The notes under the pieces were generated by a model, which was given only the letters and a program-made list of their open reading frames with translations, was not told where the DNA came from and ran no database searches. A DNA stretch of 64,000 nt from Escherichia coli (GTDB taxonomy: Bacteria; Pseudomonadota; Gammaproteobacteria; Enterobacterales; Enterobacteriaceae), in NCBI RefSeq assembly GCF_016026235.1, contig NZ_CP065613.1. One strand, 5' to 3'. Numbering within the stretch: position 1 is the first letter of the stretch; the number at the start of each line of letters is the position of its first letter. Positions 12,848 to 63,998 of this stretch are shown one piece after another. The position numbers and the translations under genes are program-made.

Positions 12848-13335
12848 ACTGCCGTGAAGTGCGGCACCCCGTAGGTTGGATAAAGCGGTCACGCCGCATC
12901 CGACATCTAACGCCCGAGCCGGTTGCCTGATGCGACGCTGACGCGTGTTATCAGGCCTACACCGCTGTGAAGTGCTCCACCCCGTAGGTCGGATAAGGCG
13001 GTTACGCCGCATCCGACATCCAACGTCCGAGCCGGTTGCCTGATGCGACGCTGACGCGTCTTATCAGGCCTACACCGCTGTGAAGTGCTCCACCCCGTAG
13101 GTCGAATAAGTCGGTTACGCCGCATCCGACATCTAACACCCGAGCCGGTTGCCTGATGCGACGCTGACGCGTGTTATCAGGCCTACACCGCTGTGAAGTG
13201 CTCCACCCCGTAGGTCGGATAAGGCGGTTACGCCGCATCCGACATCCAACGTCCGAGCCGGTTGCCTGATGCGACGCTGGCGCGTCTTATCAGCATACGC
13301 CACATCCGGCATACCATGCCGGATGTGGCACATCA
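12848..13335. repeat. Tandem REP/BIME array, four units of about 110 bp plus a terminal 14-bp-stem palindrome at about 13299-13329
   Basis: Repeated gccgcatccgacatc...gcctgatgcgacgctg...cttatcaggcctaca units; ORF track shows the same MRRNRLIRPTGWSTSQRCRPD peptide in several overlapping ORFs. Confidence 0.9.
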
Positions 13336-48860: not shown

Positions 48861-49041
48861 TATTGAGATGCCGGATGCGGCGTAAACGCCTTATCAGGCC
48901 TACGGCTCGGTTTGTAGGCCTGATTAGACGCGCCAGCGTCGCATCAGGCTCCGGGTGCCGGATGCAGCGTGAACGCCTTATCCGGCCTACGGCTCGGTTT
49001 GTAGGCCTGATTAGACGCGCCAGCGTCGCATCAGGCACAGG
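48861..49041. repeat. Two tandem REP/BIME units between nrdA and nrdB
   Basis: Direct repetition of gccggatgcggcgtaaacgccttatc(a/c)ggcctacggctcggtttgtaggcctgattagacgcgccagcgtcgcatcaggc. Confidence 0.85.
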
Positions 49042-61948: not shown

Positions 61949-62920
61949 ATGACCGAATCAACAACCTCCTCCCCGCATGATGCGGTATTTAAAACCTTTA
62001 TGTTCACACCCGAAACCGCACGGGATTTTCTCGAAATACATTTACCAGAACCACTGCGCAAGCTTTGTAACCTGCAAACCTTACGCCTGGAACCCACCAG
62101 TTTTATTGAAAAAAGTTTACGCGCTTACTACTCGGATGTTTTGTGGTCCGTGGAAACCAGCGACGGTGACGGTTATATCTACTGCGTGATTGAACATCAA
62201 AGCTCTGCAGAAAAGAATATGGCTTTTCGGCTAATGCGCTATGCCACTGCCGCCATGCAGCGTCACCTGGACAAAGGCTATGACAGAGTCCCGCTGGTGG
62301 TGCCGTTGCTGTTTTATCATGGCGAAACCTCGCCTTACCCGTACTCACTCAACTGGCTGGATGAGTTTGACGATCCGCAACTTGCCCGGCAGTTGTACAC
62401 CGAAGCTTTTCCGTTGGTGGATATCACCATCGTACCTGACGATGAGATCATGCAACATCGGCGTATAGCTCTGCTGGAACTGATTCAAAAGCATATTCGC
62501 GACCGCGATTTAATCGGTATGGTCGACAGGATCACCACGCTTTTGGTTAGAGGCTTCACTAATGACAGCCAGCTACAAACACTGTTTAATTATCTGCTGC
62601 AATGCGGCGATACCTCCCGTTTCACCCGTTTTATTCAGGAGATTGCCGAACGTTCACCACTACAAAAGGAGAGATTAATGACTATTGCTGAACGGCTACG
62701 GCAGGAAGGGCATCAAATTGGCTGGCAGGAAGGTAAATTAGAAGGTTTGCAGCAAGGTAAATTGGAGGGTCTGCAGAAAGGTAAATTAGAAGGTTTGCAG
62801 GAAGGCATGCATGAGCAAGCCATTAAAATTGCCTTGCGCATGCTGGAGCAGGGCTTTGAACGTGAGATTGTGCTGGCGGCAACCCAACTCACTGATGCTG
62901 ATATTCCGAACTGTCATTAA
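61949..62920 (+). CDS. yfaD: Rpn-family (YhgA-like) PD-(D/E)XK nuclease, 323 aa, with internal in-frame SD+ATG at 62667-62680
   Basis: N-terminal region with D63...E82-x-Q84 nuclease-like motif ([25 protein letters not shown]); C-terminal GKLEGLQ repeats; K-12 synteny after glpC. Confidence 0.85.
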
Positions 62921-62929
62921 AAGGAGAGA

Positions 62930-63154
62930 TTGATGACTATTGCTGAACGGCTACGGCAGGAAGGACATCAAATTGGCTGGCAAGAAGGTAAATTAGTAGG
63001 TTTGCAGCAAGGTAAATTAGAAGGTTTGCAGGAAGGCATGCATGAACAAGCTATTAAAATTGCCTTGCGCATGCTGGAACAGGGCATTGATCGTGACCAG
63101 GTGCTCGCGGCCACCCAGCTAAGCGAAGCCGATCTGGCAGCGAATAACCACTAA
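62930..63154 (+). CDS. ypaA: Small ORF duplicating the C-terminal module of YfaD (74 aa)
   Basis: [21 protein letters not shown]...[15 protein letters not shown] nearly identical to YfaD residues 244-303, preceded by the same aaggagagatt SD-like sequence. Confidence 0.65.
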   Translation: MMTIAERLRQEGHQIGWQEGKLVGLQQGKLEGLQEGMHEQAIKIALRMLEQGIDRDQVLAATQLSEADLAANNH

Positions 63155-63194
63155 TTAACACAGGCCCACAGCCGATCCCCATGGGCCTTTGATA

Positions 63195-63998
63195 TCAATA
63201 ACTACCTTTTATGCGTGGCCCATTTTTGCCTGATTTAAACATCGCCAGTCGTTGATCCAGGGCATCGCTGTAGAGCATCGTGTCAACGCCAACAGCGACA
63301 AAGTTCGCTCCCCACGCCAAGCATTGCTGCGCCATATCAGGAGCCACAGCCAGAAAACCAGCCGCTTTACCCGCAGCACGGATCCGCCGAATGCTGGTTT
63401 CAATAATTCGCTGCACTTCCGGGTGCCCGGCGTTATCCGGGTAGCCCAACGACGCAGAAAGATCCGCAGGTCCAATAAACACGCCATCAATCCCTTCGAC
63501 GTCGAGGATCTCGTCCAGGTTATCCAGTGCCGTTTTACTTTCCACCTGCACTAACAGACAAAGCGAATCGTTGACTTGCGCCATGTAATTCTCAATGCGT
63601 CCCCAGCGCGCAGCCCGTGCCACACTGGCCCCAACACCACGTTCACCGTAGGGAGGATAGCGCGTGGCAGACACCACCTGACGTGCCTGATCGGCAGTAT
63701 CGACCATCGGGATCAGTAGAGTTTGCGCGCCAATATCCAGGACTTGTTTAATCAGCGACTTACTGCCATCCACCGGACGGATCACGGGTTGGCTGGCATA
63801 GGGCGCTACCGCCTGTAGCTGGTGATAAAGATCCTGAATGGTGTTTGGCGCGTGCTCCCCATCAATCAGCAACCAGTCATAACCGGAAGTGGCGGCAATT
63901 TCTGCCATATAGGCAGTTGTTGAGCTTAACCACAGACCAATTTGCACTTCGCCCTTGCGTAAACGTTCTTTAAAGGGATTGGTTAATAATGCGTTCAT
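63195..63998 (-). CDS. rhmA: 2-keto-3-deoxy-L-rhamnonate aldolase (267 aa)
   Basis: 267-aa HpcH/HpaI-family aldolase ORF ([23 protein letters not shown]...); K-12 synteny. Confidence 0.9.

Follow-up and report, generated by a model that had tools for sequence, protein, structure and literature searches.

The last 2 kb of the 64,000-nucleotide stretch of Escherichia coli DNA analysed here—which whole stretch we call the window—correspond to the E. coli interval glpC / yfaD / ypaA / yfaU, where both of the middle genes carry an in-frame tandem repeat of the same kind, though in different numbers. The question that this locus raises is what such a repeat might do in the two proteins, and how its length comes to differ between genes and strains. 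We consider it very probable that the tract is the hypervariable 12-bp, four-amino-acid repeat of the Rpn proteins, setting which short form pairs with which long form. The repeat, its variability, and that functional logic have already been published in 2023, at this very locus (Zhong et al., PNAS 2023; PMC10400941).

The protein encoded by yfaD combines an N-terminal YhgA-like PD-(D/E)XK nuclease domain with a C-terminal Rpn helix-turn-helix-like domain. The Pfam family PF04754 (Transposase_31/YhgA-like) matched residues 8–209 with an E-value of 6.1e-88 and 294 bits against a cut-off of 21. Two NCBIfam models were matched in addition: the equivalog NF007418, with 721.7 bits for a cut-off of 583, and TIGR01784, a model of the Rpn family. 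Over positions 62600–63200 the window matched the glpC–yfaU interval of E. coli FDAARGOS_943 with 100% identity, and the order glpC / rpnE / ypaA / yfaU was found in 5420 of 5426 E. coli genomes, the K-12 rpnE included. The matches to PF04754 and NF007418, together with the RefSeq gene name—which is rpnE—and the identity of the locus, therefore establish yfaD as rpnE, a paralogue of the recombination-promoting nucleases. The same RefSeq entry bears the product label 'ISNCY family transposase'; and ypaA, for its part, appears in most E. coli genomes annotated by RefSeq/PGAP (L014, L016–L021, L025, L027, and L066–L073 among our loci) as a pseudogene fragment 'missing N-terminus', with the wording 'hypothetical protein; incomplete; partial in the middle of a contig'. 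According to the consulted text of Zhong et al. (PMC10400941), YpaA is an expressed small protein and the Rpn proteins are nucleases and toxins, which known biology is hidden by both labels, the 'pseudogene' and the 'transposase' alike.

The surroundings of the locus were themselves variable. In several strains the rhamnonate genes yfaU and yfaV are truncated or deleted, with the result that rpnE adjoins yfaY; yfaU is truncated in L028 and L074, and the pair yfaU–yfaV is absent from L030. As judged from the compared sequences, the rpnE locus has a deletion hot spot at its right-hand border. In E. coli CX04 (L075, NZ_CP081713.1, positions 1–1731) rpnE has lost its N-terminal nuclease part, and a Tn7-like element, with genes for a TnsA endonuclease and a transposase, adjoins the remaining short-form module, which carries zero repeat units.

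Within rpnE a ribosome-binding site followed by an in-frame start codon was read (Table 1), which allows the C-terminal 80 residues of RpnE to be produced as a protein in their own right; this SD–ATG motif of the short form had 112 occurrences in 75 related loci. We infer that RpnE_S is translated from this start in the strain of the window, as it is in MG1655, for which strain translation from the internal site was shown by ribosome profiling and SPA tagging (PMC10400941). The downstream gene ypaA, whose ORF was listed from the TTG at 62930 and whose ATG we take as the start, has an N-terminus identical to that of RpnE_S and aligns with positions 244–308 of the NF007418 profile; in MG1655 both RpnE_S and YpaA, which latter was renamed RpnE_Ss, are expressed (PMC10400941). 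The family PF27070 (HTH_Rpn_C) figures in the precomputed annotations of short-form homologues and of neighbouring rpnE genes; in our Pfam search it was not reported for the proteins of the window. A simple sigma-70 scan found no promoter site for an internal or a ypaA transcript. Between the convergent ypaA and yfaU, the GC-rich hairpin of Table 1 is terminator-like on the minus strand only and is a possible terminator of yfaU.

Table 1. Positions in the window of the rpnE–ypaA features and of the units of the two repeat tracts.
Feature	Position	Strand	Basis
rpnE (yfaD), long form RpnE_L, 323 aa	61949..62920	+	ORF list, Pfam and NCBIfam matches
Internal SD AAGGAG (62666-62671), 6-nt spacer, in-frame ATG (62678-62680)	62666..62680	+	read from sequence
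RpnE_S, 80 aa, predicted intragenic antitoxin, frame shared with RpnE_L	62678..62920	+	translation and 7TH0 similarity
Full (G-x-x-x)9 tract of rpnE: GHQI GWQE, six variable units, GMHE	62708..62815	+	glycine spacing
rpnE variable tract, 3 x 24 bp = 6 x 12 bp	62732..62803	+	in-frame reading
rpnE unit 1, GGTAAATTAGAAGGTTTGCAGCAA (GKLEGLQQ)	62732-62755	+	in-frame reading
rpnE unit 2, GGTAAATTGGAGGGTCTGCAGAAA (GKLEGLQK)	62756-62779	+	in-frame reading
rpnE unit 3, GGTAAATTAGAAGGTTTGCAGGAA (GKLEGLQE)	62780-62803	+	in-frame reading
SD AAGGAG of ypaA, directly after the rpnE stop codon (62918-62920)	62921..62926	+	sequence
ypaA (RpnE_Ss), 73 aa, free-standing second RpnE short form	62933..63154	+	ORF list
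ypaA variable tract, 2 x 24 bp = 4 x 12 bp	62987..63034	+	in-frame reading
ypaA unit 1, GKLVGLQQ	62987-63010	+	in-frame reading
ypaA unit 2, GKLEGLQE	63011-63034	+	in-frame reading
GC-rich hairpin, 10-bp stem, between convergent ypaA and yfaU	63162..63188	-	consensus scan, pattern match only

In the rpnE tract Tandem Repeats Finder reported a period of 24 at 62725–62805 (3.4 copies, 84% matches, score 127), and in the ypaA tract the same period at 62985–63036 (2.2 copies, 92% matches, score 90). The preliminary description of this DNA had already recorded three 24-bp units in the former gene and two in the latter; read in frame, both counts stand at the positions of Table 1, each set of coordinates having been 3 bp too wide at either end. 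At 62719 lies the window's one self-match of at least 80% at period 24 over 48 positions; 30 shuffles produced no such match. Four tandem arrays in the 64 kb scored at least 50, and those of rpnE and ypaA were the only two coding ones; the remaining two, non-coding in appearance, lay at 12854–13293 (113 bp x 3.9 copies, 93% matches) and 48869–49036 (87 bp x 1.9 copies, 96% matches), with units (GCCGGATGCGGCGT... and GCCTGATGCGACGC..., respectively) that look like REP/BIME-type palindromic elements. The open reading frames antisense to the tracts, 62713–62892 and 62968–63114, in which a 'CKPSNLP' repeat can be read, were considered as genes and rejected, being the mirror image of the repeat with no gene-like homologues or features.

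The period of 24 bp is real, although it is not the elementary one. In RpnE_S, glycines occupy residues 11, 15, 19, 23, 27, 31, 35, 39, and 43—nine in all, at every fourth residue and uninterrupted—of which nine G-x-x-x units the six central ones form the recognisable repeat; this repeat therefore starts at residue 19, and counting the degenerate units as well moves the start to residue 11. The glycine spacing means that each 24-bp unit consists of two alternating four-residue units, GKLE and GLQx; and, since odd numbers of units (1, 3, and 5) are common among strains, the elementary unit is 12 bp or four amino acids rather than the 24 bp originally described. Identity from unit to unit was 83%. 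Of the four nucleotide differences between the first two rpnE units, three are synonymous, which bias we count, on the strength of the sequence comparison, as a likely sign of selection on the peptide.

To describe the variation we used 75 loci: 27 from complete E. coli genomes, 13 from metagenomes—obtained in a scan with a conserved 32-mer, with one match each—and 35 contigs carrying particular YpaA variants. The rpnE tract contained 0, 1, 2, 3, 4, 5, 6, or 8 four-residue units in these loci, and the ypaA tract 0, 1, 2, 4, 5, 6, or 8. Every allele was in frame, kept the four-residue register, and differed by multiples of 12 bp; insertions or deletions of 3, 6, or 9 bp in the tract were absent from the alleles of the 75 loci. 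Far from being invariant, the number thus ranged widely in both genes, in E. coli genomes and metagenome contigs alike, and the proposal of a variable-number, in-frame repeat within the short-form 'antagonist' domain is borne out at 0–8 units. When the 80-residue short form was used as the query, the number of units separating GHQIGWQE from GMHEQAIK ranged from 0 to 9 in the 120 matches listed, the hosts among those matches being E. coli, Shigella, E. fergusonii, E. marmotae, and the cryptic Escherichia clades. Sixty of the 5420 genomes that have the locus were sampled systematically. Their rpnE numbers, deduced from the lengths of the matches and checked against the loci retrieved, were approximately 0 (55%), 5 (15%), 8 (12%), and 2 (8%), with 6 (3%), 1 (3%), and 3 (2%) being rarer; the commonest rpnE allele in that sample accordingly has zero variable units. 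Expressed as (rpnE, ypaA) units, the window is (6,4) and K-12 is (0,1). The window haplotype is rare, at most 28 genomes being at least 99% identical to it over both modules. One aberrant form was also encountered, in the metagenome contig OEQM01000798.1 (L009) and in the protein P0106, where a YpaA-like N-terminus with five units runs on in frame into some 85 residues of unrelated sequence, in an ORF of 140 aa; this fusion could be either a real rearrangement or an assembly chimera.

How the number changes can be read most directly from pairs of closely related loci. L045 and L054 had one mismatch in 3222 bp along with a single 24-bp in-frame indel in the ypaA tract, so as to be (6,4) and (6,6), respectively; in the ypaA of L054 the GKLVGLQQ unit is duplicated, giving GKLVGLQQGKLVGLQQ. 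Independently of that pair, L016 and L017 had one mismatch in 3625 bp and one 24-bp in-frame indel in the ypaA tract, being (8,4) and (8,6), with identical protein accessions for GlpC, RpnE, YfaU, and YfaV. More distant haplotypes, such as L020 compared with L019 and L021, revealed steps of 12 bp. This pattern of recent changes fits a slippage-prone array, and slippage would accordingly seem to be the mechanism. The slipped-strand origin put forward in the preliminary description thus holds as far as the recent 24-bp gains and losses are concerned, while slippage itself stays at the level of the plausible and recombination or gene conversion may contribute. Zhong et al. (PMC10400941) refer to the DNA units as dodecamer repeats and, in the consulted text, leave the mechanism of expansion open.

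The best-surviving alternative concerns this mechanism, and holds that the differences in copy number arise mainly not from slippage but from recombination or gene conversion between the tail of rpnE and ypaA, or from the horizontal exchange of alleles. The two modules are indeed close relatives: the third rpnE unit and the second ypaA unit have the same sequence, the first units of the two genes differ by 1 nt, and the 5' part of the module—from the SD to GWQE, 62664–62731 versus 62919–62986—is identical at 65 of 68 positions, versus 87 of 117 in the 3' part from GMHE to the stop codon (62804–62920 versus 63035–63151), the rpnE module ending in ..DADIPNCH and that of ypaA in ..ADLAANNH. Such a mosaic is typical of conversion, and suggests either a gene conversion of the 5' half or a separate origin of the two tails. 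Many genomes, moreover, contain a single rpnE with the ypaA-type ...ADLAANNH tail—that is, a fusion or deletion between the modules—and Zhong et al. (PMC10400941) likewise describe the downstream copy as derived from RpnE, and report that a deletion, or its fusion to the N-terminal domain, can remove it. Against a leading role for such exchange, however, in each of the two clearest recent events a single 24-bp unit was simply duplicated or deleted beside its own copy; the unit duplicated in L054 does not occur in the rpnE tract of that haplotype; and the loci with a single gene vary too, with 0, 1, 2, 4, or 5 units. We therefore regard exchange as rather unlikely to be the main source of the copy-number differences, though from the resemblance of the modules gene conversion between them probably also contributes.

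The position of the tract within the fold was approached through the crystal structure of RpnA_S (PDB 7TH0), in which two three-helix bundles form a dimer whose interface contains the long first helix (PMC10400941). A phmmer alignment placed residues 1–13 of RpnE_S on residues 1–13 of RpnA_S, and residues 47–76 on 15–44, with an E-value of 0.19; it follows that the tract inserts 33 residues into helix alpha-1 of the three-helix domain. The first 13 residues of the two proteins are nearly identical, and the C-terminal half of alpha-1, alpha-2, and alpha-3 are homologous, whereas the K-12 RpnA_S has no repeat units and RpnE_S has 33 extra residues between RpnA_S residues 13 and 15. AlphaFold2 modelled the RpnE_S monomer as one continuous helix from residue 3 to residue 57, the tract included, followed by a short helix at 62–69, with a mean pLDDT of 73.5, which value was only 61–63 within the tract. 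In a Foldseek search of the PDB with that model the top match was again 7TH0 (probability 0.99, E-value 0.11); the weakness of both E-values reflects the shortness of the domain. A continuous helix and an insertion in alpha-1 thus make the segment a predicted extension of the helix rather than a flexible linker, and of the 'coiled, linker-like segment of the putative antagonist domain' of the preliminary description we retain the location in the short-form domain and replace the loose linker by a predicted dimerisation helix.

Glycine runs of this kind have been described elsewhere. The GxxxG segments of FliH/YscL (Trost and Moore, 2009; PMC2674601) and the deca-GX3 of Yae1/Lto1 (Paul et al., 2015; PMC4523923) are likewise long runs with glycine at every fourth residue in a predicted helix, serving helix–helix association; species differ in the length of the FliH run, and strains in that of the RpnE_S run. 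The likeness is one of motif and not of homology: the NCBIfam FliH models gave RpnE 25–37 bits against cut-offs of 180–293 (NF004267: 37 versus 293) and Pfam Yae1_N gave 21.1 bits versus 27.5, which sub-threshold matches are due to the G-x3 periodicity. The nine-fold glycine stripe at RpnE_S residues 11–46, as a possible analogy in helix packing, is absent from the consulted text of PMC10400941.

The closest comparison is with the published RpnL/RpnS systems (PMC10400941), from which the locus differs in nothing essential, the allele here being (6,4) versus the (0,1) of K-12. The rpn genes are genes-within-genes in which RpnL is a toxic DNA endonuclease and RpnS, the C-terminal domain translated from an internal start, is its antitoxin. 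The rpnE–ypaA locus between glpC and yfaU is the same, as are the internal SD and ATG and the position of the repeats, which start 8–20 residues past the initiating methionine, in helix alpha-1; the 12-bp unit and the variation of its number among strains of one species are shared as well. Strain-variable four-amino-acid repeats are reported in all the E. coli RpnS and RpnSs proteins, with similar variation in Rpn proteins of distant phyla. RpnC_L is neutralised only by a short form with an equal repeat number, which rule was tested for RpnC only, and neutralisation is lost when one unit is added to only one of RpnC_S and RpnC_L. In the consulted text, neutralisation is shown for RpnA, RpnB, RpnC, and RpnP2, and not for RpnE. 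The same authors draw a comparison with the four-residue TAEL repeats in the HsdS subunit of the type I restriction enzymes EcoR124I and EcoR124II, where an in-frame 12-bp repeat also lies in a helical spacer and its number (2 versus 3) alters specificity through helix length and rotation; there, by contrast, the protein is unrelated, the readout is the spacing of DNA half-sites instead of protein–protein pairing, and far fewer alleles are known.

On these grounds we propose that rpnE would encode a toxic PD-(D/E)XK nuclease, RpnE_L, whose C-terminal 80 residues, made separately, would act as the antitoxin RpnE_S, and that ypaA would be a duplicated, free-standing short form. The repeat would lie within the long first alpha-helix, which is the helix of the dimer interface, so that each G-x-x-x unit gained or lost would change the length of that helix by about 6 Å and rotate the downstream part by about 40 degrees, and thereby alter which short form pairs with which long form. 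Replication slippage or unequal recombination between the near-identical 12- or 24-bp units would change the number in frame, so that strains of one species would carry many alleles. The toxin and antitoxin roles, the expression of RpnE_S and YpaA, and the repeat-matched neutralisation of RpnC are taken from the literature (PMC10400941); by analogy with RpnC, we infer that the number of units tunes the pairing specificity of RpnE.

A different account would accept the slippage and deny the function, the tract being a neutral, low-complexity insertion in a helix that tolerates any length, with the number having no functional consequence. Such neutrality would agree with the zero-unit allele being the commonest and with the published functional data, in the text consulted, covering other Rpn proteins and not RpnE specifically (PMC10400941); and it would also agree with the numbers within a genome being uncorrelated, since those of rpnE and ypaA were equal in only 2 of 17 distinct haplotypes, compared with the 1.7 expected if they were independent. 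The pattern G-K-[LIV]-E / G-[LW]-Q-x is nevertheless kept, with the differences between units mostly synonymous; the four-residue register is preserved throughout the alleles, as noted above; and both the loss of RpnC neutralisation upon the addition of a single unpaired unit and the recurrence of the same kind of variation in distant phyla (PMC10400941) argue in the same direction, which considerations lead us to regard a neutral insertion as improbable. That the tract might be a phase-variation (contingency) locus, in which slippage toggles the gene on and off by frameshift, may be suggested by a tandem repeat of strain-dependent length in a defence-related gene, but is refuted—to the point of being scarcely conceivable—by the in-frame length of the unit, 12 or 24 bp being a multiple of three, and by the finding of 0 frameshifted tract alleles in the 75 loci, where the downstream domain is always in frame.

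Returning to the reading in which the repeat number sets the pairing of the two forms, the agreement between rpnE and ypaA at no more than the chance rate means that the two tracts vary independently, on which point—whether the numbers of RpnE and YpaA agree within a genome—the main text of PMC10400941 makes no statement. A stricter rule, that the numbers never match within a genome, was true for the first 11 pairs and was then refuted when contigs carrying YpaA were added to the sample, with (4,4) in L047–L053 and (6,6) in L054. The numbers were unequal in 15 of the 17 haplotypes, that of the window (6 versus 4) included; therefore, if the same-number rule of RpnC applies to RpnE, YpaA would usually not be the cognate inhibitor of the adjacent RpnE_L. 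Should that rule hold, YpaA might be not a back-up antitoxin but an archived cassette of alternative specificity, or else a decoy or sensor for a phage factor or for another Rpn paralogue, which suggestion we offer as speculative and doubtful. Under the cassette alternative, recombination between the direct repeats of about 255 bp would put the YpaA module onto the nuclease domain, so that the type of tail and the length of the helix would change in one step. Beside the stored cassette and the decoy, YpaA could also be simply a decaying duplicate.

To what was published for this locus the present analysis adds the (6,4) rpnE–ypaA allele; the direct evidence, from haplotypes identical in other respects, that single 24-bp changes have occurred very recently; the independence of the rpnE and ypaA numbers, which sharpens the question of the purpose of YpaA; and the recognition of the tract as a nine-fold G-x3 glycine run, as in FliH and Yae1/Lto1. 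For the biology of the Rpn proteins, the repeat would represent a protein 'ruler' that diversifies a toxin–antitoxin interface inside one overlapping gene, which diversification probably proceeds under the pressure of phages.
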